Assembly: GCA_964503755.1 (NCBI GenBank)
Contig: CAZDBO010000001.1
Coordinates: forward strand, 92,285 to 156,284
Direction: 5' to 3'
From: an uncultured Candidatus Saccharibacteria bacterium
Lineage (GTDB): Bacteria > Patescibacteriota > Dojkabacteria > JAOAGR01
Length of the DNA stretch: 64,000 nt
Position 1 is the first letter of the stretch; every line of letters starts with the position of its first letter. Made by a program: the position numbers and the translations under genes. Of this stretch, positions 1,237 through 63,480 are shown piece after piece. The notes beneath the pieces were generated by a model, which was given only the letters and a program-made list of their open reading frames with translations, was not told the origin of the DNA and did not search any database.

Positions 1237-1842
1237 TTATTTTTTATCACTTACATAAAAACAATCACCATGACCAGGATAGAGTAGAGTATCATCTGGT
1301 AATTCTAGTATTTTTTGAATTGATTTTCTCATATTAGTAGGTGAACTATAAGAAAAATCTGTTCTACCAATTCCATCTTCAAATATAGTATCACCAATAA
1401 AAGCGTATTTTTGATCTTTTATTATAAAAATACTTGATCCAGGTGTGTGACCAGGAGTCCATATAATTTCAAATTCAAAATTTCCAACACGAAATTTATC
1501 CGTATTTTCATCAAAAAACTTAATGTTTTTAGGTTTTAAATAATGCGGATCATAACCTAAAAAATACTCTGCAGTTTCTTTTAATCTTTCAATTAAAAAT
1601 TCATCTTTTTTATTAATGTAAAGTGGTACATCAAACGACAACTGAATTTCACCAGCTGCACCTATATGATCAAAATGACCGTGTGTCTCTAAAATTCCCA
1701 CTAGTTCCAAACGATTAGATAATATGAAATTTAATATAAAATCAGCTTCGTCCCCGGGATCAATCAAGACACATTGATCTTTTGCTTCAATAACATAACA
1801 GTTACTTTTTAGTGGCCCTAATACAAAATGGTATATTTTCAT
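1237..1842 (-). CDS. metallo-beta-lactamase-fold hydrolase (glyoxalase II-like)
   Basis: THGHFDH zinc-binding motif, 201 aa. Ends 2 nt before the malic-enzyme start and overlaps the ilvD stop by 4 nt. Confidence 0.7.
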
Positions 1843-3608
1843 TTATCCTTTTCTCTATTTATAGCTGCAAGAGTGTTGTCCATCACTGCACCATAGTTTG
1901 CACTCATCACATGTTGTGTATACCTTCCTAGCCATCCATTTTTTACTTTTGGCTCAAAAGGTGGAATATTTTCCATTCGTTCATTATATTCATCTTGAGA
2001 TATGAATAGATCAATTGTTCTTTTATATGCATCAATTTTTATTCTATCACCATTTTTTATAATTGCTATAGGTCCACCTGATGCTGCTTCTGGAGAAATG
2101 TGACCTACACAAAGTCCTCTAGTACCTCCAGAAAATCTACCATCAGTAATAAGTGCCGCTTTGACACCTATACCTTTTAATGCTGAAGTCGGAGATAACA
2201 TCTCTTGCATTGCTGGGCCTCCTTTTGGACCTTCGTACCTTATTACTACAACATCTCCATCTTTGATTTGTCTTTTCAAAATAGCATCCAGTGCATCCTC
2301 TTGAGAATCAAAACACACCGCGGTACCTTCAAATACCATCATATCTTCATCTACGCCTGCAGTCTTAACAACTGCACCATCAGGTGCGATATTTCCATAC
2401 AAAATAGCAAGTCCACCAGTTTTAGAAAACACATTATCTCCGCTTCTGACTACGTCTTCATCTGGTTCCATTGCATCAGCAATGTATTCTTCTAGTGTTT
2501 GTCCAATAATATTTTTACAATGCAAATTTAGTGGTGGGTTAGAAGATTTTTGTACTGCTTTTAATATAGTTTTAAGTCCACCAACTCTATTTACATCTTC
2601 GATATGTACATCTGGTCTTGATGGAGATACTTTGCATACATTTGGAGTCTGATCTGCTAATTCATTTATTCTTCTAAGATCGTAAGGTATACCAGCTTCA
2701 TAAGCTAACGCTAATGTGTGTAGAATAGTGTTTGTAGAACCACCCATCGCTAAATCTAGGATTATTGCGTTGTCTATAGACTCATAAGTAACTATATCTC
2801 TTGGTCTAATATTGTTTTGAAGTATATATTCTATAGCATCTGCCGCTCTTTCAAAGAGATTTATTCTTTCTGGATTGATTCTCCACGTGCCTTTTTCTTT
2901 ATCTATCCATTCAGCAGCAGGTACAGTACCATTGCCTGGCAATGCTAAGCCCAATACTTCAGCAAGACAATTCATAGAGTTGGCAGTGAACATACCCGCA
3001 CAACTTCCACAAGTACGACAAGCCTTTTCTGTAATTTTAATCAATTCATCTTCTGTTATTTTGTTGGCTGTGTATTTTCCTACACCTTCGAATACAGTTA
3101 TTAGATCTGTTTTGTCTTGACCTGCAAGCATTGGTCCGCCGGATATATAAAGAGCTGGTATATTTAGTCTTACCATAGCATTAAGGATTCCTGGTACTAT
3201 TTTGTCACAGTTACCGATACCTATCCAAGCGTCAGCAGGGTGGGCTCCTATTATTGTTTCTATCTGATCAGTAATTAGTTCTCTTGAAGGTAATGAATAC
3301 TTCATACCAAAATGCCCCATTGCGATGCCATCATCAACCAATCCACCGATGTTGCAGTACCAAACATTGAATCCCTTTTCTTTTAGTTTTTTTACGATAA
3401 TATCTCCAAGCTCGCGCAAATGGGCATGACCAGGAATGTGGTTTGTAAATGAATTTACAACAGTGATAAAAGGTCTATCTTTATCTTTTACGCTATCTAT
3501 TACTCCTGCTGCTATCATCAGAGATAGAGCAGGTAGCATATGAAGACTTTGAGTGAGTATTTTACTACCTTTTTGGTGGATTTGTTGGAATCCTGGATTT
3601 AATGCCAT
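1839..3608 (-). CDS. ilvD: dihydroxy-acid dehydratase
   Basis: 589 aa. IlvD/Edd-family motifs ([22 protein letters not shown]) and a conserved C-terminus. Confidence 0.9.
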
Positions 3609-3617
3609 TTTAATTTA

Positions 3618-4670
3618 TTATTCTTTTTGATTTTCCGGTCGGAGTTTCCTTACTTGTTCACCGGCTTGCCACATCTCTGAATTTCTCATTTTGGCAAGTT
3701 CAGCATTTAATTTCTCTCTATAGTTTTTTTGTTTATTCTTTCTAATTACTCTTTGAGCTTCTTTACCTGATGCTACTGATCTATAAAGCTCTTTAAAAAC
3801 TGGCATTACTGCTTTTTTGAATCTATCTTTCCAATCTAGAGCTCCCCTTTGTGCTGTTGTTGAACAGTTTGCAAACATCCAATCCATACCGTTTTCCGCA
3901 ATTAAAGGAATTAAACTTTGAGTAGCCTCCTCTACTGTTTCATTAAAAGCTTCAGACGGCGAATGGCCCATTTTTCTAAATAGTTCATACTGGGCCTCCA
4001 TGATGCCGGCCATCGCACCCATCAAAACACCTCTCTCCCCAACAAGATCCGAATATACTTCCTTCTCAAATGTTGTTGGGAAGAGATATCCTGTACCAAT
4101 TCCGATACCTATGCTGATAACCCTATCTCTCGCTTTTCCTTTAGCATCTTGATAGATTGCAAACGAAGCATTGATACCTTTACCTTCTAAAAAATTTTTT
4201 CTTACCGATCTTCCAGCGCCCTTTGGAGCTACTAAAATTACATCAATGTCTTTAGGAGGAATAATTTTTGTATATTTTGAAAATGTTATTCCAAAACCGT
4301 GAGAAAAACACAAAGCTTTTCCTGCTGTAAGGTATTTTTTAATCTTTGGCCATACTTCGATTTGTCCAGCGTCAGACAAAAGATAGCATATTATGGTACC
4401 TCTTTCAGCTGCCTCTTCTATTTCAAAAAGTGTTTTCCCCTCAACCCAGCCATCAGCTACTGCCTTGTCCCAAGATGCTGTTCCTTTTCTTTGACCGATA
4501 ATTACATTAAATCCATTGTCTCTCAGATTGAGAGCTTGGGCTGGACCCTGTACGCCATAGCCTATTATGGCTATTACTTCGTCTTTTAATGTTTGTTTTG
4601 CTTTTTCTAGTGGATATTCTTTTTTGGTGATGACTTCTTCTACGACACCACCGAAATTTATTTGTGTCAT
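3618..4670 (-). CDS. ilvC: ketol-acid reductoisomerase
   Basis: 350 aa. N-terminal Rossmann GYGVQGPAQALNLRDNG typical of class I KARI. Confidence 0.9.
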   Translation of the reverse strand: MTQINFGGVVEEVITKKEYPLEKAKQTLKDEVIAIIGYGVQGPAQALNLRDNGFNVIIGQRKGTASWDKAVADGWVEGKTLFEIEEAAERGTIICYLLSDAGQIEVWPKIKKYLTAGKALCFSHGFGITFSKYTKIIPPKDIDVILVAPKGAGRSVRKNFLEGKGINASFAIYQDAKGKARDRVISIGIGIGTGYLFPTTFEKEVYSDLVGERGVLMGAMAGIMEAQYELFRKMGHSPSEAFNETVEEATQSLIPLIAENGMDWMFANCSTTAQRGALDWKDRFKKAVMPVFKELYRSVASGKEAQRVIRKNKQKNYREKLNAELAKMRNSEMWQAGEQVRKLRPENQKE

Positions 4671-5004: not shown

Positions 5005-5484
5005 GTGATACTATTAATATATTTTATGCAATTTAGAGAAACAATTTCCAAGCTAAAAAGTATACAATTTTTAAAATATCTTTTGACAGGGGGAGAATCT
5101 TTTCTAGTAGATTATGGCGCTTATAATGCAGTGTTTTTTATTTTGATAAATTTTGATCTAAATAGAGAGATATCAAGTAGTATTGGTAATTTTGTTGGTA
5201 TGACGTTGGGATTGATTACTTCATTTATTGGTAATCAAAAGTTTGTTTTTAATAGATCTAAAGAAACTATGATGAGTAATTTTTCTAAATATCTTTTGTT
5301 ATTTTTGTTCAATTATTTTGCTTCTTCTGGCTTGATTATCTTATTATCATATTTTTTAAATCTTATTTTGGATTTAATCAATCTATCATCGACAGATTTA
5401 AGCTATTCTATATCAAAATTTGTAGTAATGTTTATTCTCATTTTTTGGAATTTTCTTATGTACAAAAAAGTAGTTTTTAAATAA
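5005..5484 (+). CDS. GtrA-family membrane protein (polyisoprenyl-phosphate sugar flippase-like)
   Basis: About 150 aa with 4 predicted TM helices. LKYLLTGG...VDY...NFxxNxxFVF pattern typical of GtrA. The true start may be the Met at about 5026. Confidence 0.55.
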   Translation: MILLIYFMQFRETISKLKSIQFLKYLLTGGESFLVDYGAYNAVFFILINFDLNREISSSIGNFVGMTLGLITSFIGNQKFVFNRSKETMMSNFSKYLLLFLFNYFASSGLIILLSYFLNLILDLINLSSTDLSYSISKFVVMFILIFWNFLMYKKVVFK

Positions 5485-5496
5485 AATCTAAGTATT

Positions 5497-6414
5497 ATGA
5501 AAAAAGTTTCTATCATAATACCAGCATACAACGAGTCAGGACAATTGGATATCACTATTGAAAATCTAGAGCAGGTTTTAGCTGATGCTGATTTTAAGAA
5601 AGAGATAATAATTGTAGATGATGGATCTACAGATGATACATGGGCTCGGATCAAACAACTAAAAGAAAAATATAAACATATTGTCGGTATAAGATTTAGT
5701 AAAAATTATGGAAAGGATAATGCAATATTTGCAGGATTAAAATCGGCTAGTGGCGATGCAGCTGTAGTTTATGATGCAGATATGCAGTTTCCAGCAAATA
5801 TGATATTAGATATGTATAAATATTGGACTACTGGATATAAAATTATTGAAGGAATCAAAGAAAATAATGATCCTGCAAAAGATAATGTTTATTTATTTTT
5901 TGCAAATGCCTTTTATTTTGTATTAAAACTTTTTACAGGTATCGATCTAAGAAGAAATTCAGATTTTAAGTTTTTGGATAGACAAGTTGTAGATGTTATT
6001 TTGCAGCATCAGGAAAGTAATGTATTTTTTCGAGGAATAATAGAGACTCTAGGTTTTCCAAAGCTTTCTTTGTCTTTCAAAGTACAAAATCGCATTGTAG
6101 GTACAAGTAAATGGAGTTTTCGTAACTATTTAAACATGGTTTACAATTCTATTATTCTCTTTACTACATTACCACTTCAGATAAGCTTAGTTTTTACTGT
6201 AATATTTTTTATGTTTTTGCTTTTTTTGTCGGTAGATACTTTCTTGAGATGGTTGCTTGGATTTTCTTTGGAAGGTTTTACAACAGTGATTTTATTGGTC
6301 ATCATAGCAACAATAGCAATCATGATAAATTTAAGTATTTTGGGGATTTATATAGCCAAGATTTATAATGAAATAAAACGCCGACCTAAATATATAATTT
6401 TAGAAAAGCTATAG
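5497..6414 (+). CDS. GT2 glycosyltransferase, GtrB/DPM1/CsbB-like polyprenyl-phosphate hexosyltransferase
   Basis: IIIPAYNE, IIVDDGSTDDT and DAD motifs of the GT-A fold. Two C-terminal TM helices as in GtrB. Confidence 0.8.
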   Translation: MKKVSIIIPAYNESGQLDITIENLEQVLADADFKKEIIIVDDGSTDDTWARIKQLKEKYKHIVGIRFSKNYGKDNAIFAGLKSASGDAAVVYDADMQFPANMILDMYKYWTTGYKIIEGIKENNDPAKDNVYLFFANAFYFVLKLFTGIDLRRNSDFKFLDRQVVDVILQHQESNVFFRGIIETLGFPKLSLSFKVQNRIVGTSKWSFRNYLNMVYNSIILFTTLPLQISLVFTVIFFMFLLFLSVDTFLRWLLGFSLEGFTTVILLVIIATIAIMINLSILGIYIAKIYNEIKRRPKYIILEKL

Positions 6415-6418
6415 ATTT

Positions 6419-8668
6419 ATGTTTGCTATTATTTTACTTACTTTATGGTTTTGGACAGGATATCTTATTGTAAAGAAAATATTAAAAGTTGATAGTTTTT
6501 TGAAAGGTTATTCTTTATTAAATGAAAAAGTAAGTATCAGACCTTGGTTTGTTATTTTTCCTGCAAGCTTTTTGGTTGGTATCTTGATTTCTAATTGGAT
6601 AGTTTATCTTTTAGCATACTTTTTACAAGATGTAGACAATAATATTTTGATTTCAAATGGAATTTTTATACTTTTTCTAATTGGTTTATCAATATTTTTA
6701 TATCGAGCTTACTTAATAAAATTGCTAGAAATTGGAAAAGTACAAAATTTAGCTTTAGTTAATATTAAACCAGTTCAAAATAAGCTAATTAGGTGCTTAA
6801 AAAATAATTTTTATGAAATACTATTAGTATTATTTTTCTTGTTTTTTTCTAGTTTTTTGATGTTTTATACATTTCGAATAGAAGATAACAAAATTTTAAT
6901 GGGGCCAGGGGTTTATTCGGACATGTCAGCTCATATCACTATGATTCGATCTTTGTCCTTTGGAGATAATATACCTACTAGATATCCATTTTTCTACGAA
7001 AATGATGTATCAATCAGATACCATTTTATGTTTCAGTTTATGGCTGCAAATTTGGAGATATCTGGTTTGCCTTTGGATTGGGCTATTAATGTGCCTAGCA
7101 TACTTTCTCTTGTTTCTTTTTTGATGCTTTTGTACGCCTTGTCTACTATTTTGTTTGGGAAGAAATTTATCTCTATTCTCGTTGTACTATTTTTTATTTT
7201 TAGGACAGGGCTTGGTGGATTTTATTATGTTTATGAGCTTTACCAGTATATTGAGGGAGGAGAACTGACACGAGGATTAGAAGTAAAAAATAAATCTAAT
7301 CCGTTGGTAATGAATGGAGAAGAAATCGACAGTGTTTTAGAAGGTATTATAAATACAGATTTTTATGTGGGAGAGACACAAAATGAAATATGGGGGCTAT
7401 ATAGCATAAATGTTTATGTAAATCAGCGCCATTTGGCTTTTGGTATGGGAATTATGTTATTGATATTGTTTTTTGTGATTAGAGATTTTTTGGTATTTTG
7501 GCGTAAATTAAGACATAAAATATACAATCTTAGTGTTTTTGAGAAAACGAAATTTTTTGTAAAAGAGATGTTTTTAACAAAATCAGCTTGGTTTCCAAAT
7601 AATCTATGGGTCTACTTGGGATTGGGTATAATTTTAGGGTTATCTGGCTTTTGGAATGGGGCTGTTTTGATATCAACTTTACTAATTTTATCTATATTGA
7701 CTTTGTTTTCTAGATATAAACTTAGGTTAGCAATTCTAATCTTCATAACTTGTGTATTGTTCTTTTGGCAAGTAAATTTTTTTATTGGCAGTAATGTTGA
7801 GACCAAAACAGAGACTATTATTAAATTTGGTTATTTGGCGGATATACCTTATCATATTCAATATAATCTTCATCAGCTAATAGTTAAAAAAGAATGGTTT
7901 GAGGCATTTTTGTATCTTTCAAATATCGTTCCTTATGTGATTCAGTTTATTTGGGATTTACTTGGAGTTTTTGCTTTGATAATTCTTGTTTTACTGATAT
8001 TTAAGGATGCGGCTTATAGGATTTTAATTATCTCTTTTCTAATGCCATTTATTTTTGCTTTTACAACTAACTTGACTGTAGATATGAATGTGAACCATAA
8101 ATATGTTTTGATATCGATTATTTTACTAAATATATTTATCGCTTATTTCTTTTACAAATTGTCTAAATCAAAATATGTAACAAAATTTATCTTTATAATG
8201 TTGATTTTGGCTTATATCTTTACTGGTATTTTAGATTTTATAGCGTTTGTTAATTCTAACAATTCAAAATTTGCAATTAAATTTGATTTGAATAATGAGT
8301 TTTATAAATGGGTGATAGAAAAGACTGAACCTAATTCTGTTTTTGTTACAGGATATGTAACAGTCTATCCTGTTGGTTATTCGGGTAGGTATTACTTTGC
8401 GGCATGGCCATATTTTGCTTGGTCAGCTGGATATGATACTGTTGGGAGAGAGAAAATTTTACAGTCGATTTATTCAGCTACAGATTTGGATAAATTAAAG
8501 CAGATTTTATATGCTAATAACATTGATTATGTAGTTATAGACTCGGCAGTGTTGAATGATAAATTGTTTAAAGTAAATGAAAAAATATTTAAGGAAAATT
8601 TCGAACTTGTTTATCAAGATTCCGATCCGGTATATGGCTCCGTTAGAATTTATGATGTCAGGGATTAG
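6419..8668 (+). CDS. GT-C fold polytopic membrane glycosyltransferase (GtrC/YfhO/ArnT-like)
   Basis: 749 aa with more than 12 predicted TM helices and a C-terminal soluble domain. Third gene of the GtrA-GtrB cassette. Confidence 0.45.
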   Translation: MFAIILLTLWFWTGYLIVKKILKVDSFLKGYSLLNEKVSIRPWFVIFPASFLVGILISNWIVYLLAYFLQDVDNNILISNGIFILFLIGLSIFLYRAYLIKLLEIGKVQNLALVNIKPVQNKLIRCLKNNFYEILLVLFFLFFSSFLMFYTFRIEDNKILMGPGVYSDMSAHITMIRSLSFGDNIPTRYPFFYENDVSIRYHFMFQFMAANLEISGLPLDWAINVPSILSLVSFLMLLYALSTILFGKKFISILVVLFFIFRTGLGGFYYVYELYQYIEGGELTRGLEVKNKSNPLVMNGEEIDSVLEGIINTDFYVGETQNEIWGLYSINVYVNQRHLAFGMGIMLLILFFVIRDFLVFWRKLRHKIYNLSVFEKTKFFVKEMFLTKSAWFPNNLWVYLGLGIILGLSGFWNGAVLISTLLILSILTLFSRYKLRLAILIFITCVLFFWQVNFFIGSNVETKTETIIKFGYLADIPYHIQYNLHQLIVKKEWFEAFLYLSNIVPYVIQFIWDLLGVFALIILVLLIFKDAAYRILIISFLMPFIFAFTTNLTVDMNVNHKYVLISIILLNIFIAYFFYKLSKSKYVTKFIFIMLILAYIFTGILDFIAFVNSNNSKFAIKFDLNNEFYKWVIEKTEPNSVFVTGYVTVYPVGYSGRYYFAAWPYFAWSAGYDTVGREKILQSIYSATDLDKLKQILYANNIDYVVIDSAVLNDKLFKVNEKIFKENFELVYQDSDPVYGSVRIYDVRD

Positions 8669-9675
8669 TAGATAATATTTACTTCAAATTCTAATTCTAT
8701 ATCAAATTTTCTTTTTACTTCTTCTTTTATGATGTTGGCTAATTCTAAAATATCTCTTCCTGTTGCGTTATTTTTGTTTATCAAAACCAATGCATGATTT
8801 TGATGCACAGAAGCACCTTTGTGCTGGTATCCTTTAAATCCGCATTGTTCGATTAACCATCCTGCGGGTATTTTGACACAAGATTCTTTATTAGTTGGGT
8901 AGGTGGGCATATTGGGGTATTCAATTAATAGTTTATTTATTAAATTCTTTTCGACCTCTGGATTTTTGAAAAAACTCCCAGCATTACCGATTTTATTTGG
9001 GTTTGGTAGTTTTTTGCGACGTATATAAGTAATAATATTTGCTAATAATTTTGGTGATAGTCTTTTTATTTTTCTTCTTTCTAGTTCCTCTTTGATCCCT
9101 GCATATTCTCGTTTGTAATTGTGTTTTTTTGTGGTTAGTTTTAGACTGATTTCTGTTATAAAAACTTTGTTTTTTAGTTCTTTTTTAAATATGCTGTCGC
9201 GATATCCAAAGTCGCATTCATTTTTTGTTAAGATAAAAAATTTTTTGTTAATCAGATCAAAACATTTTACGTATTCGATAGATTCTGCAATCTCCACGCC
9301 ATATGCTCCTATATTTTGTATAGGTGCACCGCCAACTGTACCTGGTATATAAGCAAGATTTTCTATACCTCCCCAATCATTTTGGGTGACAAACTTTACT
9401 AGATTGGTCCAAGATTCGCCGGAATTTATTGACAGATAAATATAATTATCAATTTCTTTAATAACTTTTATCCCTTTTATTTTGTTGTGAATTACTAATC
9501 CATCAAAATCGTCGACAAATAAAACATTTGAACCTCCACCTAGAATAAAATATTTATGATTGAGATTTAAAATTTCTAAATCTTTAATGTCATTAATAAT
9601 TATGTATTGATCAGCTTTTGTGTGTAAATGAAAAGTATTTATCTTGTAAAGATCTTTATTCTTGTAGTATCTCAT
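8665..9675 (-). CDS. murB: UDP-N-acetylenolpyruvoylglucosamine reductase
   Basis: 336 aa. FAD-binding ILGGGSNVLF. Conserved C-terminal MurB substrate domain (KNPxxxxAGWLIEQCGFKG). Confidence 0.85.
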   Translation of the reverse strand: MRYYKNKDLYKINTFHLHTKADQYIIINDIKDLEILNLNHKYFILGGGSNVLFVDDFDGLVIHNKIKGIKVIKEIDNYIYLSINSGESWTNLVKFVTQNDWGGIENLAYIPGTVGGAPIQNIGAYGVEIAESIEYVKCFDLINKKFFILTKNECDFGYRDSIFKKELKNKVFITEISLKLTTKKHNYKREYAGIKEELERRKIKRLSPKLLANIITYIRRKKLPNPNKIGNAGSFFKNPEVEKNLINKLLIEYPNMPTYPTNKESCVKIPAGWLIEQCGFKGYQHKGASVHQNHALVLINKNNATGRDILELANIIKEEVKRKFDIELEFEVNIIY

Positions 9676-10222
9676 TTTTATCTCTTTTCTTCCATTTTAC
9701 GTCTTCTTGGCTATTTAATAAATTTAGATACCGGGCTATAACAAAAAGAAAATCTGATAATCTATTGAAAAATATCAAGATCTCTTGTCTTATTAGTTTA
9801 TTTTTAGCATTGATCTTGACTATCTTTCTTTCTACTCTTCGACAAACGGCACGGCATATATGAGTATAGCAGGCACTTTCACAACCACCGGGTAAAATAA
9901 AATTTGTAAGTTTTGGTAGCTGTTGTTCTATTTTGTCAATACAGTTTTCTATGTATTTAATGTCTTCTTTATCGATGGATTCCTGATCTAACCCAGCTAC
10001 CTCAGCTCCTATATCAAAAAGAATATTTTGGATCCAAGAAATGATTGATTTTAGTTCATCATCAACTTTTTCTTTGGACAAAAGATGGGTTAGATAGCCA
10101 AGATGCGAATTAAACTCGTCTATTTCTCCGCAAAGTTCAATGCGGAAATTATTCTTTTTTACTCTTTTTCCACTGGCAAGTGATGTAAAACCACTATCGC
10201 CAGTGCGGGTGTAGATGGACAT
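9656..10222 (-). CDS. ATP:cob(I)alamin adenosyltransferase, PduO-type (Cob_adeno_trans domain)
   Basis: IYTRTGDSGFTSL N-terminus and LIFFNRLSDFLFVIARY closely match PduO N-domain motifs. Confidence 0.8.
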   Translation of the reverse strand: MSIYTRTGDSGFTSLASGKRVKKNNFRIELCGEIDEFNSHLGYLTHLLSKEKVDDELKSIISWIQNILFDIGAEVAGLDQESIDKEDIKYIENCIDKIEQQLPKLTNFILPGGCESACYTHICRAVCRRVERKIVKINAKNKLIRQEILIFFNRLSDFLFVIARYLNLLNSQEDVKWKKRDKNEILQE

Positions 10223-10319
10223 GAGATTTATTTTAGCTTATTAAAACATATGTTTCTTGATTTAGGTGCTTATTCATCTAGGTTTATCATGTTTGTATAT
10301 GAGTTAGTAGAATTCATTA

Positions 10320-11684
10320 TTATCTGCCAAATATAACTCCCTTTTCATCCTCCAAAACCCCCTTACTTGTCCCAAATCTTGGGTATAAATTTAGATTTTT
10401 AACAAAAATCTGGTTGTTTTTTATAGAAACATCTCTAAATTCTATAGCCACAGCAAATGTGCCAGAATGGATGTTGTTTGCCGGTTTGTCATCTAAAAAT
10501 CTTTCTGAAATCAATTTTACATAACATTCTGCCAAAATTGGGCTTAATTGATGTTTTTTTATTAGATTTTGTGCTATTTTTTCTAAGTTTTTTATTAATT
10601 TTGATTTTTGTTTGTGTATTTTTCGTAAGATATTTTTGTTGTTTTGATAATGAAGTATTTGCTTGTAAGTTGGTTTAAAGATCAATGCAAATTTTGTCAG
10701 ATTTTTTGCGATTTGAATCAGTTCATTTTGAGATAAATTTATACCAAATGATAAGAGTTTTTCTACTACCGACAAAATAATTTTTTCTTTTATTTTCTTT
10801 GATGAAATATGATATTCTAAGCATCCAGACATCAGTATCTCATATATTTCAGAAAATATCTTTACTATATTGATGATTTCTATAATAGCTTGGTCGATAG
10901 ATATTGGAATAGAATAGTGTATATTGATTTTTTGAGTAAAACTTAAATGACGGTTATCACAGATTATATTTCTAATAAATTTGGTTTTTTCATTTGTTAT
11001 ATTTCGAGTTAGATTTGTTATGCTATCCCTGTTTGTTTCATAAAATAACTCGTTGAATACACCAATATGTTTAAGTATTTCATCAGACGTTGGTATCTTG
11101 TAGAAGGCATGTTTGTCAATTGTATTTTGACTAATATACGTTACATGAAAATGTCCATCAGATGCACTTTGACATCCTCTTGATAGGCCATACTTATCTC
11201 TGGTTGCTTGATCTGTATGTCCCATCATCCCATAAATATGCAGATTTTGATAAATAGAATCTTTATGATATTCATACATTATTCTTACTGCCTCAATAAT
11301 CTGTGTTGATATCATCTCGGCACAAGATTTGATTTGTTCTTGATTTTTTAGTGATAGATCTAATATATTGCATCTTTTAGGATTCGAATCTGCATTTTCA
11401 AACCACCAGATGATGAACTGTGAAGGTATTAGATTACCTTGATATTCCATCATATCAAGTGTATGTGGAGATGCCGCTAGTGTATTTATACCGACAAACT
11501 CTTGATTTCTATAGAGTTTGCCTATTTGTGTATTGAGTAAACTATTAAAAAAATTTGTATTTGTATTATCAGTTCTTGGTACAAATGAAGGTATTTTTAT
11601 AAAAGGTAATTGATATTCTATTTTCTTTAGCTTTTTATCAATCTTTTTAATTATGTTTATTAAATTGATTTGCTTTTTCACCAA
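10320..11684 (-). CDS. hypothetical protein (454 aa) with possible HIT-like His motif
   Basis: No clear family. GMMGHTDQ...SASDGHFHVTYI recalls the HxHx(H/Q) nucleotide-binding motif of the HIT/GalT superfamily. Very Lys/Asn/Ile-rich. Confidence 0.3.
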   Translation of the reverse strand: MVKKQINLINIIKKIDKKLKKIEYQLPFIKIPSFVPRTDNTNTNFFNSLLNTQIGKLYRNQEFVGINTLAASPHTLDMMEYQGNLIPSQFIIWWFENADSNPKRCNILDLSLKNQEQIKSCAEMISTQIIEAVRIMYEYHKDSIYQNLHIYGMMGHTDQATRDKYGLSRGCQSASDGHFHVTYISQNTIDKHAFYKIPTSDEILKHIGVFNELFYETNRDSITNLTRNITNEKTKFIRNIICDNRHLSFTQKINIHYSIPISIDQAIIEIINIVKIFSEIYEILMSGCLEYHISSKKIKEKIILSVVEKLLSFGINLSQNELIQIAKNLTKFALIFKPTYKQILHYQNNKNILRKIHKQKSKLIKNLEKIAQNLIKKHQLSPILAECYVKLISERFLDDKPANNIHSGTFAVAIEFRDVSIKNNQIFVKNLNLYPRFGTSKGVLEDEKGVIFGR

Positions 11685-11809
11685 GTTATTATACTGAGTT
11701 CAAAACGTTTATAACAATTCATGGGTATATATACAAATATATTGCAAATAAATAAATTTTATGATAAAAAGATATTTATCCTCAAAATTTAATTCATTTA
11801 CTAAACACT

Positions 11810-13528
11810 ATGTCAAACGATTCTGAAGAAGTAAAAACGGGTGCTGAATTGGTGGCTCAAACTATTGTTGACCTTGGTATAGATATGATCTTTGGTTATC
11901 CTGGTGGTGCTATCATGCCAGTACATGATGCTCTTTATGTATATGAATTGCAAGGAAAAATGAAACATTATGTCCCAAGACATGAACAAGGTGGTATACA
12001 TGCTTTAGAAGGGTATGCAAGAGCGAGTGGAAAAGTTGGGGTTATATTTGTGACGTCTGGTCCTGGTGCTACTAATTTGGTAACAGGTATTGCTGATGCT
12101 CTTATGGATTCTGTACCAGTTATATGTATTACAGGACAGGTAGCAACACATTTGATAGGCACAGAAGCTTTTCAGGAAACAGATATTATAAATGTTACTA
12201 AACCTATCACCAAATGGAATTATCAAATCAGAGATCCAAGAGAGATACCATATGTTTTGGAAAAAGCTTATTATATAGCAACGACTGGGCGACCAGGTCC
12301 TGTACTAATAGATATACCTAAAGATATGCAGACAGCAAAAGTAGATCTGTCTGAAGTGCAACATTTTGAAATTCCTAAAGAACAATATGACTTAGATGAA
12401 AGTTTGATAAAAGAAGCAGCAGAGTTGATTAATTCATCACAAAGACCACTTGTATTGGTGGGGCATGGAGCTATTATTTCTAATGCACATGATGAAATAA
12501 AAGAATTGTTAGAAAAAGGACATCTGCCATTTGCTTGTACTTTACATGGATTATCTACATTGCCCAAGACTCATCCAAGTTATGTAGGTTTTTTGGGAAT
12601 GCATGGTAATTATGCACCAAATAAGCTTACAAATGAGGCTGATTTGCTAATTGCTCTAGGTATGCGTTTTGATGATAGAGTCACTGGTAATCTTAAAAAA
12701 TATGCACCAAATGCTAGGGTAATTCATATTGATGTAGAGAAATCTAAGATTAACCGTAATGTAAAAGCAACAATTGGTATTAATGCAGACTTGAAAGTTG
12801 CGTTATCAAAATTGAATAAGTATATCAAATTTGTAGATAGAAATTCTTGGTTTGATAGGTTTAGCGAATTGCATTCCATCGAAACAGAAAAAGTTATTAA
12901 AGATCAAATTAATCCAACAAGTGACAACATTTTAATGGCAGAAGTTGTTAAACTACTTTCGGATATCACCAATGGTAGTGCAAATATAGTAGCAGATGTC
13001 GGCCAACATCAAATGATAGCAGCAAGATATTATGAATTTCAAAGATTAAATAGCTTCTTTTCATCTGGTGGATTGGGAACTATGGGATTTGCTCTTCCTG
13101 CTGCGATTGGTGTTAAATTAGCAAGGCCTCATGAAGAAGTTATAGCTATTATTGGTGATGGAGGATTTCAGATGACCATGCAAGAACTTGCTCTGATATC
13201 CTATGAAAATATACCTGTAAAAATAATAATTTTGAATAATGGATTTTTGGGTATGGTCAGACAATGGCAAGAGATGTTTTTTGATAAGAGATATGCCTAT
13301 ACAAATATGAGTAATCCAGACTTTGTAAAACTAACAGAGGCTTATGGAATAAAAAGTAGGCGTGTTGATTCTAGATCTCAGCTAAAAGAAGGTTTGATTG
13401 AGTTAGTAAGGTCTGAGAGAGGATATTTATTAGAAATTATTGTACAAAAAGAAGATATGGTATTTCCTATGGTGCCTCCAGGTGCATCTATAGAAGAAGT
13501 TGTTTTGGAATCACCTAATCTAGAATAA
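11810..13528 (+). CDS. ilvB: acetolactate synthase / acetohydroxy-acid synthase large subunit
   Basis: 572 aa ThDP enzyme. GYPGGAIMPVHDAL; GDGGFQM...NNGFLGMVRQWQ ThDP-binding motif. Confidence 0.85.
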   Translation: MSNDSEEVKTGAELVAQTIVDLGIDMIFGYPGGAIMPVHDALYVYELQGKMKHYVPRHEQGGIHALEGYARASGKVGVIFVTSGPGATNLVTGIADALMDSVPVICITGQVATHLIGTEAFQETDIINVTKPITKWNYQIRDPREIPYVLEKAYYIATTGRPGPVLIDIPKDMQTAKVDLSEVQHFEIPKEQYDLDESLIKEAAELINSSQRPLVLVGHGAIISNAHDEIKELLEKGHLPFACTLHGLSTLPKTHPSYVGFLGMHGNYAPNKLTNEADLLIALGMRFDDRVTGNLKKYAPNARVIHIDVEKSKINRNVKATIGINADLKVALSKLNKYIKFVDRNSWFDRFSELHSIETEKVIKDQINPTSDNILMAEVVKLLSDITNGSANIVADVGQHQMIAARYYEFQRLNSFFSSGGLGTMGFALPAAIGVKLARPHEEVIAIIGDGGFQMTMQELALISYENIPVKIIILNNGFLGMVRQWQEMFFDKRYAYTNMSNPDFVKLTEAYGIKSRRVDSRSQLKEGLIELVRSERGYLLEIIVQKEDMVFPMVPPGASIEEVVLESPNLE

Positions 13529-13972
13529 GATATTTATTGGATTCTCACACATTATTGGTTTGTTGGATAATTATCTTGTTGCATTTAATGATGCTTTTAG
13601 CATTTAGAGTGATTAGAAATTTGAATAATTTTTTTGAATCAATTCTCTTGTAAATATATAAAAATTAAGTATTACACGTTTTAATTATGAAAATTTCATT
13701 GATAAAATTTACAACCACATTTAAATTTATTATTTGTAATTAATGTAATCTTGTGAGAAACTCTCTTTTGTTAGAACAGGTTAAATTAGTTATAATAAAT
13801 TGCAGATTTTTATTGATTAGAATATTCTTTAATTTTCTATTAAACTGAGATTAATAATGTAATCAAAGATTAGTCTTTAATTGTTTTGATTGTGTTGTCA
13901 TCCATTCTTTGTAGTACAATTTGCTAATTTAAAATTGAGAACTCATAAGTACTAGACAAAATATAATTTATC

Positions 13973-14001
13973 TTGTATATTCACGAGGATTACTATAAAA
14001 T
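13973..14001 (+). promoter_or_regulatory. promoter candidate for tuf-ribosomal operon
   Basis: TTGTAT at 13973-13978 and TAAAAT at 13996-14001 with a 17-nt spacer. The -10 ends 8 nt before the tuf ATG at 14010, leaving no room for an SD. Confidence 0.3.
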
Positions 14002-14009
14002 AAAAAGCT

Positions 14010-15194
14010 ATGGCAACATTTCAAAGAACAAAACCACACGTAAATGTGGGTACAATAGGTCACGTAGACCACGGAAAAACTACATTGACAGCTGCAATTC
14101 TGGCAGTTTTGGCACGAGCTGGTTATTCAGCAGAAAATTTAGGAGTCGACCAAATAGATAAAGCCCCAGAAGAAAAAGCTAGAGGTATTACTATTAACGC
14201 AACCCACGTAGAATACGAAACTGCTAATAGGCACTATGCACATGTTGATTGTCCGGGACATGCTGATTACATAAAAAACATGATCACAGGTGCTGCTCAG
14301 ATGGATGGTGCTATCTTGGTAGTTGCAGCAACTGACGGTCCAATGCCTCAAACAAGAGAACATATCCTTTTAGCAAGGCAAGTTGGTGTTCCAAGAATTG
14401 TTGTATTCTTAAACAAATGCGATATGGTAGATGATCCAGAAATGATTGATCTTGTTGAAGAAGAGGTTACAGAATTGCTTAAGAAATATGGGTATAATTC
14501 TGAAGAAACAAGATTTGTACGGGGTTCGGCTCTAAAAGCTCTTGAAGAGACAACAATCGGTGAATGGTCACAAAAAATCCTTGAGCTCATGGAAGCGGTC
14601 GATGCCGTTATTCCAACTCCAGAAAGAGCTGTTGATCAACCTTTTTTGATGCCTATTGAGGATGTATTTCAAATACAAGGTCGGGGAACTGTAGTAACTG
14701 GACGTATTGAAAGAGGAGTTGTAAAGGTTGGTGACGCTGTAGAGCTTATCGGTCTTGGTAAGGATAATAAATCTGTTGTAACAGGAGTTGAGATGTTTAG
14801 AAAACAATTAGATGAGGGAGTTGCAGGCGATAATGTAGGAGTACTTTTGAGAGGTATTGAAAAAGATCACGTGATGAGAGGGATGGTTCTTGCAAAACCA
14901 GGTAGCATCACTCCTCACAAAAAATTTGTAGCTGAAGTTTATGTATTAAAGAAAGAAGAAGGTGGAAGACATACAGCGTTTATAACTGGTTATCGACCAC
15001 AGTTCTATATTAGAACAACTGATGTTACAGGAGAAGTCAAATTGGTAAATTCTGAAATGGCAATGCCTGGTGACAATGTAACTATGGAGATAACATTGAT
15101 CGAGCCTGTGGCTATGGAACAAGGGATGAGATTTGCTATTCGTGAAGGCGGAAAGACGGTTGGTGCTGGTATAGTAAACAAAATTATTGAATAA
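14010..15194 (+). CDS. tuf: elongation factor Tu
   Basis: 394 aa. [22 protein letters not shown] GTPase motifs. Confidence 0.97.
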
Positions 15195-33450: not shown

Positions 33451-34041
33451 ATGAAAGAAGGTAAAAAAAATCAAAAAATAAAAAAATTGGATAAACAATT
33501 CGATGGTGCTACAAACGAAGAAAAGTTTAATGAAAAGCCGTTGAATAATGATAATGATTTAGACGAACACGGAATAAATGATTCTAAGGTAGATCAAAAT
33601 TTTCAAGAACATACTCAGGAACAAATAGAAGATTATAAAGATAAATATATTCGACTGCAGGCAGAATTTGCTAATTTTGCTCGACAAAAGGAACAAGAGA
33701 TTTTATCAGCTACTAATTTTGCCAAAAATAATATATTACTTAGGGTTTTAGAAGTTATAGATGACATCGAAGCCTATCTAACACAGGAAAATATAAATGA
33801 AGAAGTAAAGAATATTTTAAGTATTTTACTAGCTAAACTGAATCTTCTTATAACTCTTGAGGGAGTAACTGTAGTAGAAATTAATCCTGGTGATGATTTT
33901 GACTATACAATAGCCGAGGTTGTAGATACCACTCCATCTCAAGATGAATCCCAAAAAGGTAAAGTAGCTTATGTGATCAAGAAATGCTATAAAATTTATG
34001 ACAAAGTTTTAAGAACGGCAAAAATCATCGTTTTTAAATAA
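33451..34041 (+). CDS. grpE: nucleotide exchange factor GrpE
   Basis: 196 aa. YIRLQAEFANFARQ coiled coil and C-terminal beta domain (VAYVIKKCYKIYDKVLRTAKIIV). Confidence 0.8.
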   Translation: MKEGKKNQKIKKLDKQFDGATNEEKFNEKPLNNDNDLDEHGINDSKVDQNFQEHTQEQIEDYKDKYIRLQAEFANFARQKEQEILSATNFAKNNILLRVLEVIDDIEAYLTQENINEEVKNILSILLAKLNLLITLEGVTVVEINPGDDFDYTIAEVVDTTPSQDESQKGKVAYVIKKCYKIYDKVLRTAKIIVFK

Positions 34042-34925
34042 TGAAAAAATATATCAGGAAACGTATACTGCGTATAAAATATACTGATCTTATACAGCCA
34101 TTAGTGACTTTAATAATTGTTGGTTTGATAGGATTTCTAGTATTTAACATGTTCACTGGTGGTCAAGAGCAGGAGCAAAGAGTTATAAAAGAAATTTATA
34201 AAATATTTACTTTCGATGAAATGGTTCAAAATATGACCACCGGCAAACTACAAATACTTACCAATGGAGTCATATATTTTTATACTGATAACAACTCTGC
34301 TTCTGCTCAGACAGCGAATACACAAAATACAAGCACAGTTACTCTAACTCAGGTACAATCTACACCTTCTCAAAATAAAGACACTTTGATAGAAAGAAAA
34401 TTAGATAATCACTATTTTTATATTGATAACGGAAAATTGATCAGAGTAGAGGATAGAAATTTCGGTGCCAATAATACAATTTTCATTGATAGGGATGGTT
34501 CAGTTGTTGTTGCTTCTGGATTGACAGGTAAATATATTAGGTATCCTGAACCGGCTGATGATGAAAGTGATGAAATAAAATCAATTTTCTTCGGAGTGAA
34601 GAACTTCGTTACAAGTATTTATCCAATAGGCGCATTGATTGATGATTATAAAAATGAGAGATTTTTCCCAGTGGAAAGAGCTAATAACATATTTAGTGGA
34701 AAATGGAGACATCCTCTTTTTACATCAGATAAAGTATTAAATATAATTATAAGTATAGATGGTGCTACAGGTTTTGTTGATACAATGAAGATAGCTACAG
34801 TGCCAGAAACTTCGATTACATTTCAGGTTAGAAAATTAACTGAAAATCATGATTTGTATTTTTTACCACAAGGATATAAAGAACAAGAATTGGATTACAA
34901 ATATCGAACAAAAAATAATACATAG
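34041..34925 (+). CDS. hypothetical membrane-anchored (N-terminal TM) extracytoplasmic protein
   Basis: 294 aa. One N-terminal TM helix (LVTLIIVGLIGFLVF). No recognisable domain. Confidence 0.4.
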   Translation: MKKYIRKRILRIKYTDLIQPLVTLIIVGLIGFLVFNMFTGGQEQEQRVIKEIYKIFTFDEMVQNMTTGKLQILTNGVIYFYTDNNSASAQTANTQNTSTVTLTQVQSTPSQNKDTLIERKLDNHYFYIDNGKLIRVEDRNFGANNTIFIDRDGSVVVASGLTGKYIRYPEPADDESDEIKSIFFGVKNFVTSIYPIGALIDDYKNERFFPVERANNIFSGKWRHPLFTSDKVLNIIISIDGATGFVDTMKIATVPETSITFQVRKLTENHDLYFLPQGYKEQELDYKYRTKNNT

Positions 34926-50602: not shown

Positions 50603-51190
50603 TTATTCTGAAGAGTTTAATTCTTCTAAATATTTTTGATATTCTATATCTTTTGACATGATTGTTTCAAGAGCTTGTCGAGTCACGTCAGCTTTACTTA
50701 AACCATTTCTTTTAACATTCCATTCCAGATACTGATCTATATGTGGCGGTAATATCAACAAAAATTTTGTTTGCATAAGACTACGTGCTTCTTCTAGAGC
50801 TTCTGATAATCTTATTTCTAAGGTGCTTGTTGTATATTTTTTAACTAATAGATATTTTGAAGGATGATTTTGTAAAGTTTTTATTTGACTATGCGATTTT
50901 GAAATAAAATCAGTATTATAAATCACTATAACAGGCTTTTTATTTGCTATAGATATAGATGCTTCATACAAAATATACGTACTCTTTTTGGTATATTCGA
51001 TTACTACCAAATCAGATTTTAAAATATTATCTTCATTAGACTGTATTATTTTTTTAATTTCTTGCTTATTATTTTCTAATTGTATAGGCTTTCTTTCTAC
51101 AATGCTAAAACGACGAATTTTTAATATGTCTCTAATCCGATTTATAGTTTCTGAATGAGACTTATAACTATAAGATAAGTATATTTTCAT
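50603..51190 (-). CDS. Rossmannoid nucleoside 2-deoxyribosyltransferase/SLOG-like domain fused to C-terminal ribbon-helix-helix domain
   Basis: 195 aa. N-terminal MKIYLSYSY...DLVVIEYTKKSTYILYEASISIANKKPVIVIY fits the NDT-like fold pattern. C-terminal LILPPHIDQYLEWNVKRNGLSKADVTRQALETIM fits the RHH (CopG/Arc) pattern. Confidence 0.4.
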   Translation of the reverse strand: MKIYLSYSYKSHSETINRIRDILKIRRFSIVERKPIQLENNKQEIKKIIQSNEDNILKSDLVVIEYTKKSTYILYEASISIANKKPVIVIYNTDFISKSHSQIKTLQNHPSKYLLVKKYTTSTLEIRLSEALEEARSLMQTKFLLILPPHIDQYLEWNVKRNGLSKADVTRQALETIMSKDIEYQKYLEELNSSE

Positions 51191-53033: not shown

Positions 53034-54320
53034 TTATTTGATTTCATAAATTTGAGCTCCTAAAGAAACTAATTTTTGTATTAAATCAGGATATCTACGA
53101 TATAACGGATCAATATTTTCAATTATTGTATCGCCGTTCGCAGTAAGAGCTGATATTAAAATGGAATGAGCGCACTGTATTATGTTTGGCGATTGCACTT
53201 TTGTACCTTTTAATTTACTAGGTCCAAAAGTAATCACCATATGTGGGTGAGCAATTATAATTGAGGCACCAAGTTTTTGTAACTCTTCAACAAAATATAA
53301 TTGGCTTTCGTACATGTTTGAGTATATTTTTATACTACTTTCTGCTTGTATTGCTAACGCTATTGCTTGAGGGATTAGATCTACAGGAAATCCGGGCCAA
53401 GGTTGATCCTGAATCTTGTCTATATCACCGCGAATATTTTTTCTACAGATCAAATTTTGGCTTGATGGAACTAATATATCATCTGCATCTATCTGATAAT
53501 TAAGATTTAATTTAGAGAAATAATTCAATATCTGTGTTAGGTTTTGTGGTTTTGTATTTTTGATTCTTAGTTCTCCTCTAGTTATTGCGGCTGCAACTAT
53601 CCATCCTCCTACATCAATATGATCAGGTTCTATAGTCCATTCACCGCCTTTTAATCTATCTACACCAGTAATTATTAGTTTATTCGTGCTAATGCCTTCT
53701 ATCTTAGCACCAATGCTATTTAGAAATCGACATAACTCTTGTGTGTGTGGTTCACATGCAGCGTTATATATAATAGTTGTTCCTTTGGCTTTTACGGCAG
53801 CAAGAATTAGATTTTCAGTTCCTGTAACAGACGCTTCGAGAAGCCAGATTGGTTCTAGCAAAGGTTTTAACTTAGTTGTTTCTAATCGATAATAATTTTC
53901 TTTAGAAACCGTTACATTCATGCTTTGCAGACCTTGGAATAATGTATCCAGAGGTCTATTTCCCAATTTGCATCCTCCGGGATTGTTTATCTCAGCTTTG
54001 CCAAATCTTGAGAGTAAAGGTCCTAAAAATACAAAAGTAGCCCTTTCTTTATCTGCTAATTTATCATCAATTTTGTAACTATTAATGCTTGATGAATCAA
54101 ATCTATAAGAATTATCTCCGATTTTTTCTACCTTACCACCGAGCTGTTTAAATACTTCAATAAATATATTTACAGATGAAGTATTAGGTACATTGTGTAA
54201 AATAACAGGTTCATCAGCTAATATAATAGCTGGTATTATTTTTATTACAGAATTTTTATTAGGAACTGGTGTTACTGTACCATTTAATGTGCTTCCACCT
54301 TTTACTAATATTGTTTTCAT
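53034..54320 (-). CDS. murA: UDP-N-acetylglucosamine 1-carboxyvinyltransferase
   Basis: 428 aa. EPT family. N-terminal VKGGSTLNGTVTPVPNKNS. Its position after cell-envelope genes favours MurA over AroA. Confidence 0.8.
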   Translation of the reverse strand: MKTILVKGGSTLNGTVTPVPNKNSVIKIIPAIILADEPVILHNVPNTSSVNIFIEVFKQLGGKVEKIGDNSYRFDSSSINSYKIDDKLADKERATFVFLGPLLSRFGKAEINNPGGCKLGNRPLDTLFQGLQSMNVTVSKENYYRLETTKLKPLLEPIWLLEASVTGTENLILAAVKAKGTTIIYNAACEPHTQELCRFLNSIGAKIEGISTNKLIITGVDRLKGGEWTIEPDHIDVGGWIVAAAITRGELRIKNTKPQNLTQILNYFSKLNLNYQIDADDILVPSSQNLICRKNIRGDIDKIQDQPWPGFPVDLIPQAIALAIQAESSIKIYSNMYESQLYFVEELQKLGASIIIAHPHMVITFGPSKLKGTKVQSPNIIQCAHSILISALTANGDTIIENIDPLYRRYPDLIQKLVSLGAQIYEIK

Positions 54321-54925
54321 TATTTTTCAATAAAAGATAAAAATATACGCATAGGTACAAGGATTAAGATTATTATTCCAATAGTAAATGGTATAAATAA
54401 CCAGGTTTTATACACAAATGAAATAGCACCTACTATCAACATAACAATCCAAAATATATGCGCATTTTTTTGAAAAAATAAAAATAAAGAATTCGGAATA
54501 TCTTGTTTATTGCTTATCCTTCCTATACTTTCTGTCGAGAATATGAAAAATAAAAACATTAGTACAAAGAAAACATAAAAGTACAAATAATTACCGTAAA
54601 CTGTACCATTATAATATAGACTTAATATTTTAATAGTAATGAAAAATAAAATATAACTAATAATCAGAGATGCAGAAAGTGCAATATGTGAATTTATAGA
54701 AGTGTTTTTGGTTAATTTTCTTGTTACACTTGTGTATAAAAAAACATTAATAATTACTAATAAAAAAATTGGAATGTACCAAGAATATTTAATTTCGTTT
54801 ATTAAAAAAAAATAATTTGATTCAAAATACATTGTTCCAATTATTAACAAAGTGAAAATACTTAAATAACTAAAAAAATATACACTTGGTCTGTCAAGTT
54901 TGATATTTAAATTTATTTTTTTCAT
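54320..54925 (-). CDS. hypothetical integral membrane protein (about 6 TM)
   Basis: 201 aa, hydrophobic throughout. Start overlaps the upstream gene by 4 nt. Confidence 0.4.
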   Translation of the reverse strand: MKKINLNIKLDRPSVYFFSYLSIFTLLIIGTMYFESNYFFLINEIKYSWYIPIFLLVIINVFLYTSVTRKLTKNTSINSHIALSASLIISYILFFITIKILSLYYNGTVYGNYLYFYVFFVLMFLFFIFSTESIGRISNKQDIPNSLFLFFQKNAHIFWIVMLIVGAISFVYKTWLFIPFTIGIIILILVPMRIFLSFIEK

Positions 54926-62778: not shown

Positions 62779-63480
62779 TTGTTAGAATCCTCTAACATGA
62801 CATTATATTTTTTAGAAAATTTACAATTTATAATACTATTAATACTTTCAACATCTCTTATTTCAACTATATTTCGCAATATAATCGGAATCAAAACATT
62901 GAATATTTATATAGTATTGGTTTATACATTAATTTTTTTTGTTAATGCTTATTATGTCTTTTTTATAAATACAGATTACGATTATTGGGTAATTTTATTA
63001 AGCTTACTACATATTCTTTTGATATTTATAGTACATTACATCACTCTCATTTTTTATAAAAAAGAAGTATCTGGATTAAATATTCATTATTATGCAAAAG
63101 TTTCTATGGCAATAATTTCTTTTTTGCTAGTAGTATATAGTATCTCTATGATATTTGATTTAACGGGCGTTTACGCAAATAAATCCAAATTAGCATTAGT
63201 ATTGACTATTTTACTGCTTTCATTTAGTTTAGAACCTTTATTATCATTACTTATGCAGAAAGGATTAAAAACTTTTAAGGAAATATACAAGAATACACTT
63301 TTTGCCTCTTTAATCATATCAATAATTCTTATTTTATTTGTTCAGTATTTGCATAATATTTTAAATATTTGGTTATTTTTTGTATTCGTGTTATTAGCAG
63401 TTATTTATTTAGGAAGGTTCACTGGTCTTAGATTAACAGAGATATATAGATTTAAAGAGATTATTAAAAAAGATGATTAA
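62779..63480 (+). CDS. hypothetical integral membrane protein (about 6 TM)
   Basis: 233 aa, hydrophobic helices throughout. Confidence 0.4.
   Translation: MLESSNMTLYFLENLQFIILLILSTSLISTIFRNIIGIKTLNIYIVLVYTLIFFVNAYYVFFINTDYDYWVILLSLLHILLIFIVHYITLIFYKKEVSGLNIHYYAKVSMAIISFLLVVYSISMIFDLTGVYANKSKLALVLTILLLSFSLEPLLSLLMQKGLKTFKEIYKNTLFASLIISIILILFVQYLHNILNIWLFFVFVLLAVIYLGRFTGLRLTEIYRFKEIIKKDD

Follow-up and report, generated by a model that had tools for sequence, protein, structure and literature searches.

The locus and its genes

The region described here is a window of 64,000 nucleotides from the contig CAZDBO010000001.1. Our subject is a pair of co-oriented open reading frames (ORFs) on its minus strand: one codes for a 454-residue protein without a family assignment, referred to below as the orphan, and the other, downstream of it, for a 188-residue PduO-type adenosyltransferase. 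An earlier note on this DNA had named both ORFs, with the orphan upstream, and they were found as it placed them. The features of the locus are as follows.

10320-11684, minus strand: orphan ORF, 454 residues, TTG start (the database gene call begins one codon later and gives 453 residues)
11130-11507, minus strand: HIT-like core of the orphan, residues 60-185
11142-11180, minus strand: putative active-site motif of the orphan, with the H178 codon at 11151-11153
10223-10319, minus strand: AT-rich orphan-pduO spacer, 97 nt
9656-10222, minus strand: pduO, ATG start, PduO-type ATP:cob(I)alamin (corrinoid) adenosyltransferase, 188 residues, matching PF01923 and TIGR00636
8665-9675, minus strand: murB, UDP-N-acetylenolpyruvoylglucosamine reductase, matching PF02873 and PF01565

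Read along the minus strand, the order is orphan, spacer, pduO and murB. The 3′ end of pduO overlaps murB by 20 nt, and an overlap of 20-32 nt is also present in the related loci L002, L003 and L016. No terminator-like site was found on the minus strand of the orphan-pduO spacer, promoter-like matches within it were below shuffle expectation, and its length in the relatives is 98-100 nt. The murB gene is context only and lies outside any B12 system.

The window has a G+C content of about 30%, and the best relative in the genome collection is 'Candidatus Dojkabacteria bacterium SKW36', which places the source in the Candidate Phyla Radiation (CPR)/Patescibacteria, to which Dojkabacteria (formerly WS6) belong. 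The gene content of the window is one of core functions, including ilvD, ilvC, a GtrA/GT2/large-membrane-protein cluster, murB, ilvB, tuf, a ribosomal protein cluster, secY, ftsK, a class A penicillin-binding protein and tRNA synthetases. Across the window, the only Rfam matches were three tRNAs.

The 188-residue protein and its possible client

The sequence of the 188-residue protein identifies it unambiguously as an ordinary PduO-type ATP:corrinoid adenosyltransferase with the ATP motif and catalytic residues intact, in agreement with the earlier note, which had read it as a PduO-N-type enzyme. The protein matches the Pfam model PF01923 (Cob_adeno_trans) at an E-value of 5.4e-55 and 186.5 bits (cutoff 24), covering profile positions 1-171 of 171, and the NCBIfam model TIGR00636 (PduO_Nterm) at 7.8e-57 and 191.7 bits (cutoff 108.45). 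Its alignments with solved corrinoid adenosyltransferases in the PDB run from end to end, with E-values of 9e-41 to 1e-31 and 40-50% identity. At the N terminus lies the ATP motif YTRTGDSGFT, of which residues 5-13 (TRTGDSGFT) align with TKNGDKGQT of the L. reuteri enzyme (LrPduO); in the LrPduO structures, the ATP-binding motif of PduO is T-[KR]-x-G-D-x-G-x-T. Residues D35, F112, R128 and R132 of LrPduO correspond to D35, F108, R124 and R128 of the 188-residue protein. In LrPduO, F112 is the Phe that displaces the lower ligand, and D35 and R128 act as a pair. The residues R124/R128/R129/E131/R132 occupy positions aligned with the R186/R190/R191/E193 region of MMAB, and this RRxER helix is the one mutated in human MMAB deficiency.

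The family is already known, and a 79%-identical orthologue from Candidatus Dojkabacteria is already correctly named in NCBI as a cob(I)yrinic acid a,c-diamide adenosyltransferase. The enzyme would bind ATP and four-coordinate cob(II)alamin and, after reduction, Co(I) would attack the C5′ of ATP to yield adenosylcobalamin (AdoCbl) from a salvaged corrinoid. This ATP/Co(I) chemistry is the established mechanism of the family.

What speaks against a working enzyme is its surroundings. Neither an AdoCbl-dependent enzyme nor a corrinoid transporter was found within the 64-kb window, and no other cobalamin salvage gene is present there. A cobalamin riboswitch upstream of pduO was ruled out, given that positions 9500-14100 had no Rfam match to one at E<=1. 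One could envision from this that the gene is a relic or a recent acquisition whose product no longer makes AdoCbl, or that the protein has some other purpose, for instance to bind or detoxify corrinoids. Beyond the Dojkabacteria clade the closest homologues are at most 49% identical, and those that are named come from non-CPR phyla (Spirochaetia, Ignavibacteria, Prevotellaceae, Deltaproteobacteria and others), which is compatible with sporadic acquisition of pduO. Gene decay is moreover ongoing in the same genome, as seen in a malic-enzyme pseudogene described below. However, all of the catalytic residues are intact, and the ratio of nonsynonymous to synonymous substitution rates (dN/dS) of pduO is 0.13-0.14 when it is compared with two congeneric orthologues, indicating that the gene has been maintained by purifying selection over the three lineages. 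An AdoCbl-dependent enzyme is also on record for CPR, as follows, and we think that a PduO without its usual activity is improbable.

An AdoCbl-dependent ribonucleotide reductase (RNR) is reported in CPR (PMC7427843). Beyond that statement, the literature searched on Dojkabacteria or CPR and cobalamin or the histidine triad held nothing else of use. The premise of the earlier note, that organisms of this type are not expected to use AdoCbl, is weak because of this report. A salvager with a class II RNR requires an adenosyltransferase, so that a PduO in a CPR genome is only mildly surprising, and the most likely client of the enzyme would be an AdoCbl-dependent (class II) RNR encoded elsewhere in the genome. 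The pduO gene adds one more hint that certain CPR lineages rely on corrinoid salvage, probably to supply a class II RNR; if confirmed, corrinoid salvage would constitute a metabolic dependency on B12 producers in the community.

The orphan represents a conserved family

The orphan could be placed in none of the families of Pfam, NCBIfam, PADLOC and PHROG and has no sequence match in the PDB at E<=10, profile search included. Relatives were nevertheless found. A word-indexed search returned eight of them, close and distant, and when 1.84 billion representatives were searched exhaustively with a profile, 146 family clusters were obtained at E<1e-3 (clustering at 50% identity, the count being approximate), with 61 below 1e-30. 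Most members have 430-530 residues, and their source annotations read 'hypothetical protein' throughout. The matches in taxon-labelled genomes are all from CPR, namely Dojkabacteria, Levyibacteria, Woesebacteria, the Microgenomates group and the Patescibacteria group. Comparison of 101 members with Pfam, NCBIfam, PADLOC and PHROGs at E<=10 gave nothing consistent.

The orphan diverges faster than its neighbours (61-68% identity, versus 79% for PduO and 85% for MurB), and its dN/dS is 0.18-0.20. It is a real, constrained protein. In the 101-sequence alignment, on which all conservation figures below are based, H178 is the sole invariant column (101/101). It lies in the His-containing string HIYGMMGHTDQATRDKYGLSRGCQSASDGHFHVTYIS, which had caught the attention of the earlier note and which is the best-conserved block of the alignment and not a chance resemblance. 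The motif in the orphan reads R169-G-C-Q-S173-A-S-D-G-H178-F-H180-V, and the family consensus is R169-G170-x-[PQ]-[ST]173-x-x-x-G-H178-hydrophobic-[H/N]180-[V/I]. A Ser or Thr at position 173 is present in 101/101 sequences, G170 in 96/101, Pro or Gln at 172 in 95/101 and R169 in 90/101, and position 180 is occupied by His in 69, Asn in 21 and Gln in 3. Conservation of at least 90% was also observed for R37, H74, W93, G155, G170, P338, T339, Q342, E445 and the C-terminal R454. The elements of the HIT-like core are a TLAASPH74T strand, a P87-x-[HQ]89-hydrophobic-W93W94 strand, a long helix, an IYG..G155 strand and the catalytic loop.

One member, P0046 (a 780-residue protein from a Logan contig), ends in an AAA_14 ATPase domain (PF13173, E 1.9e-12), for which the PADLOC candidate PDC-S01 is a match as well; no other domain fusion was seen in the family. 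At L017 8526-9900 (the same locus as L010; JAOAGR010000002.1, Dojkabacteria SKW36), a frameshift in this metagenome-assembled genome divides the orphan orthologue into ORFs of 298 and 178 residues. An intact 457-residue orthologue is present in five other assemblies with an identical PduO (L016, L018-L021), and the split probably reflects either a misassembly or a pseudogene confined to the strain.

A probable relationship to the HIT superfamily

A structure prediction of the 454-residue protein, which the earlier note had called for, gave an AlphaFold2 model with a predicted local distance difference test score (pLDDT) of 94.8 and a predicted template modelling score (pTM) of 0.93. The model has a HIT-like alpha+beta fold, to which are added a helical domain peculiar to the family (about 130 residues, roughly 263-396) and extra C-terminal beta-hairpins. 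Fold comparison of the model gave the following scores, each with the PDB entry concerned.

1z84, GalT-like ADP-glucose phosphorylase: 9.3
3ano, Ap4A phosphorylase: 9.2
6k5z, GalT: 8.8
several entries, bacterial HIT proteins and HINT2: 8.0-8.5
4qvu, DUF4931: 8.3
2pof, CDP-DAG pyrophosphatase (Cdh): 8.1
7p8p, Fhit: 7.8
several entries, CWF19L: 7.5-7.7
4i5t, Apa2: 7.6
4ndf, Aprataxin: 6.3

With a weaker first model of the orphan the outcome was much the same, HIT-superfamily structures ranking in the first ten positions.

Profile alignment with hhalign pointed in the same direction. When the orphan-family profile was compared with human HINT1, the sequence of which was checked and is identical to that of PDB 3tw2, LSRGCQSASDGHFHVTY was aligned with GSDGGQSVYHVHLHVLG. 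The orphan motif falls on G-G-Q-S107-V-Y-H-V-H112-L-H114-V of HINT1, so that H178 coincides with the nucleophile His112 and S173 with Ser107, and in both proteins the Ser precedes the His by five residues; S/T173 and the G-x-Q-like lead before it align with G105-Q106-S107. We also used an eight-sequence HIT alignment, made up of vertebrate HINT1 orthologues of little diversity together with HinT, HINT2 and bacterial HIT sequences verified against the PDB and an FHIT sequence without such verification. The alignment to it was collinear, with orphan residues 85-183 on HINT1 47-117 and P87-x-H89 on P49-T-H51, and only 1 of 200 column-shuffle controls reached the observed score. The single sequence of E. 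coli GalT was tried against the orphan profile and gave an insignificant result (hhalign E 0.34).

Several results weigh against this relationship. The comparison with the eight-sequence alignment had an E-value of 0.02 and a probability of only 2.4%. None of the 101 members matched the HIT, GalT and CwfJ models of Pfam (PF01230, PF11969, PF01087/PF02744 and PF04677) at E<=10. A Foldseek search of the model against the PDB returned nothing significant, and the relationship to HIT proteins is therefore remote. The position of the first triad His (176) is not conserved, being D, L, H, E or F, and the third is H, N or Q. With H178 invariant and the other two positions variable, the family has kept the nucleophile but not a strict triad. 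Taking model and alignments together, we think that the orphan is probably a very divergent member of the HIT superfamily, and we treat it as working like a HIT enzyme.

If so, H178 would attack the alpha-phosphate of a nucleotide-containing substrate, such as a nucleoside-5′-phosphoramidate, a dinucleoside polyphosphate or a nucleoside-diphosphate (NDP)-sugar. The phosphates would be held by Ser/Thr173 together with four conserved arginines (R37, R162, R169 and R454), and water, phosphate or some other acceptor would then resolve a covalent nucleoside monophosphate (NMP)-His intermediate. The helical domain and the C-terminal beta-hairpins presumably set the substrate specificity. The analysis shows which genes are present, how the sequences are conserved, what fold is predicted and that the pairing is not conserved; catalysis, substrate class and the RNR client of PduO are inferred. 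One could also imagine that the protein is HIT-like in fold but is not an enzyme, and that it binds nucleotides or nucleic acids or acts as a scaffold, like the catalytically doubtful CWF19L/Drn1 domains. Against this, the single residue invariant among the 101 sequences is the very His equivalent to the HIT nucleophile and the phosphate-binding Ser/Thr is 100% conserved, a pattern typical of retained catalysis, and we regard a non-enzymatic role as rather unlikely.

Adjacency of the orphan and pduO

The earlier note had proposed that the two proteins could form a nucleotide/adenosyl transfer pair. Put more specifically, the orphan and PduO would be a dedicated two-enzyme module, for example one in which the orphan carries out a CobU-like His-GMP nucleotidyl step in corrinoid salvage. 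The genes are co-oriented and lie 97 nt apart with no terminator-like site between them, they have stayed next to each other in three lineages at the species level, both are under purifying selection, and nucleotides are involved in both chemistries. However, PduO adjoins the orphan only in Dojkabacteria loci, which form one shallow clade within one genus, and the three lineages (that of the window; L002; and L003/L010/L016-L021) are syntenic throughout a ribosomal-tuf-ilvB-orphan-pduO-murB-GT block. The adjacency lacks independent weight because the three share this entire 20-kb gene order. In addition, pduO is coupled more tightly to murB, through their overlap, than to the orphan, and the window offers no further step of cobalamin salvage.

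Outside Dojkabacteria, distant orphan homologues were found at 20 loci, many of them redundant (L004-L009, L011-L015 and L022-L030; the metagenome scan used an 8-sequence alignment), which single linkage at 70% identity reduced to four CPR lineages. No PduO and no MurB was present in the fetched flanks of up to 8 kb on each side. The gene pair is thus not conserved beyond close relatives, an outcome that the earlier note itself had named as refuting its proposal, and a dedicated module is very unlikely. No neighbouring gene is common to three or more of the four lineages, so that guilt by association yields no function for the orphan. A regex scan of the window and part of the fetched loci did not reveal a canonical HIT protein.

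The neighbours of the distant homologues are heterogeneous and include a 2-hydroxyacid dehydrogenase, an M20 peptidase, a glutaredoxin and a phosphoesterase, as well as type-IV-secretion-like genes, an integrase, a Fic/MazE pair, HNH nucleases and a DNA methyltransferase. The latter group, together with the match of the AAA_14 domain of P0046 to a PADLOC candidate, could suggest that the family serves mobile elements or defence in CPR, for instance as a nucleotide-targeting effector. But neither PADLOC nor PHROG has a model that matches the orphan family itself, the Dojkabacteria orphan resides in a stable syntenic block of core genes (ilvB, tuf, ribosomal proteins and murB), and none of the neighbours recurs across lineages. 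We consider such a function doubtful, and about as improbable as the loss of PduO activity weighed above.

The reading that we prefer, with a probability of roughly 60%, is that these are two functionally independent genes, adjacent in one Dojkabacteria lineage, which encode a working PduO and a divergent HIT-superfamily protein. The orphan and PduO are probably not a functional pair. A point to be held against this reading is that only four independent non-Dojkabacteria lineages were available for the gene neighbourhood, and with so few we keep a slim chance for a lineage-specific functional link. A further scenario, likewise of very low probability, is that the orphan has been recruited with PduO into corrinoid salvage as a non-orthologous nucleotidyltransferase. 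CobU uses covalent NMP-His chemistry for the guanylylation of adenosylcobinamide-phosphate, and by analogy the orphan might form a similar intermediate; if true, it would be a new CPR-specific class of cofactor- or nucleotide-salvage enzyme. The overall interpretation in the earlier note is partly supported, in that the orphan is probably HIT-like, but the transfer pair and the assumption of a genome without AdoCbl are not supported.

CPR/Patescibacteria make up a large part of bacterial diversity, are without nucleotide and most cofactor synthesis, and have a proteome much of which is without assigned function. The orphan family, which is moderately large, is a concrete candidate, open to testing, for an enzyme with which these bacteria scavenge nucleotides or process nucleotide conjugates, and it could enter the domain databases as a new family of the HIT clan.

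Other features of the window

At 31-1234 on the minus strand lies the malic-enzyme pseudogene, with in-frame stops at codons 27 and 61 and a frameshift near residue 284. The stop at codon 61 replaces a Tyr of the orthologue, which in a related species is intact and has 397 residues (L016 19008-20201).

About 75 nt upstream of the tuf ATG at 14010 (13935-14009, plus strand) are nearly 100% identical in three species, with a single difference, whereas conservation is far lower in the remainder of the 480-nt ilvB-tuf spacer. The stretch has no Rfam match at E<=1 and resembles a leader or regulatory element that has been conserved.

The branched-chain amino-acid genes ilvD, ilvC and ilvB (large subunit) are found at 1839-4670 and 11810-13528, and no ilvN small-subunit ORF follows ilvB. 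CPR are usually described as lacking amino-acid biosynthesis.

On the plus strand, 5005-8668 codes for a GtrA-like flippase (159 residues), a GT2 glycosyltransferase (305 residues) and a polytopic membrane protein of 749 residues. The best NCBIfam match of the glycosyltransferase is PgfS, far below the cutoff of that model. The membrane protein has no Pfam or NCBIfam match and is conserved in relatives (750 residues in L003 and L016). The trio has the appearance of a cell-surface glycosylation module of three components, one of them a novel GT-C-like partner.

A 195-residue protein is encoded at 50603-51190 on the minus strand, between aspartyl/asparaginyl-type and seryl-tRNA synthetase genes. 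It matches ThsB_TIR weakly (E 7.6e-5, above the Pfam cutoff) and a nucleoside 2-deoxyribosyltransferase-like model at E 4.5e-4 (below the cutoff), and may be a nucleotide-processing or defence-type protein. The ORFs at 34041-34925, 54320-54925, 54922-56151 and 62779-63480 (201-409 residues) gave no Pfam match at E<=1e-3.

Comparison with known systems

Like L. reuteri PduO (3ci1/2nt8), human MMAB (2idx) and B. subtilis YvqK (1rty), the 188-residue protein consists of a single domain of the same length, and it shares with the family the ATP motif, the F-I-L-P-G-G segment with the dimethylbenzimidazole-displacing Phe and the R-x-x-x-R-R-x-E-R helix. There is no material difference from these enzymes. 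Unlike Salmonella PduO, and as in most family members, it has no C-terminal DUF336 domain. Its gene belongs to a CPR genome, and the window around it has no B12 genes.

The orphan stands farther from its relatives. DUF4931 (4qvu), Cdh (2pof) and CWF19L1/2 differ from it in length, motifs and taxonomic range and have no detectable sequence similarity to it. Compared with the Hint/Fhit branch (HINT1 3tw2, HINT2 6yi0, Fhit 7p8p and bacterial HIT 3lb5/7mqw), whose members have about 120-150 residues, it is far longer at 454, carries the additional helical domain and beta-hairpins, lacks the first triad His, has a variable third one and is missed by the Pfam HIT models. With the GalT-like/nucleotide phosphorylase branch (At5g18200 1z84, GalT 6k5z and 1gup, Rv2613c 3ano and yeast Apa2 4i5t) it has neither a sequence-level match, as the comparison with E. 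coli GalT showed, nor a GalT Pfam match, and no Zn/Fe-site residues were identified in it; the H-x-H-x-Q of GalT resembles the H/N/Q at its third triad position. The orphan is best seen as defining an undescribed, apparently CPR-restricted family within the HIT superfamily, and not a categorically new system.

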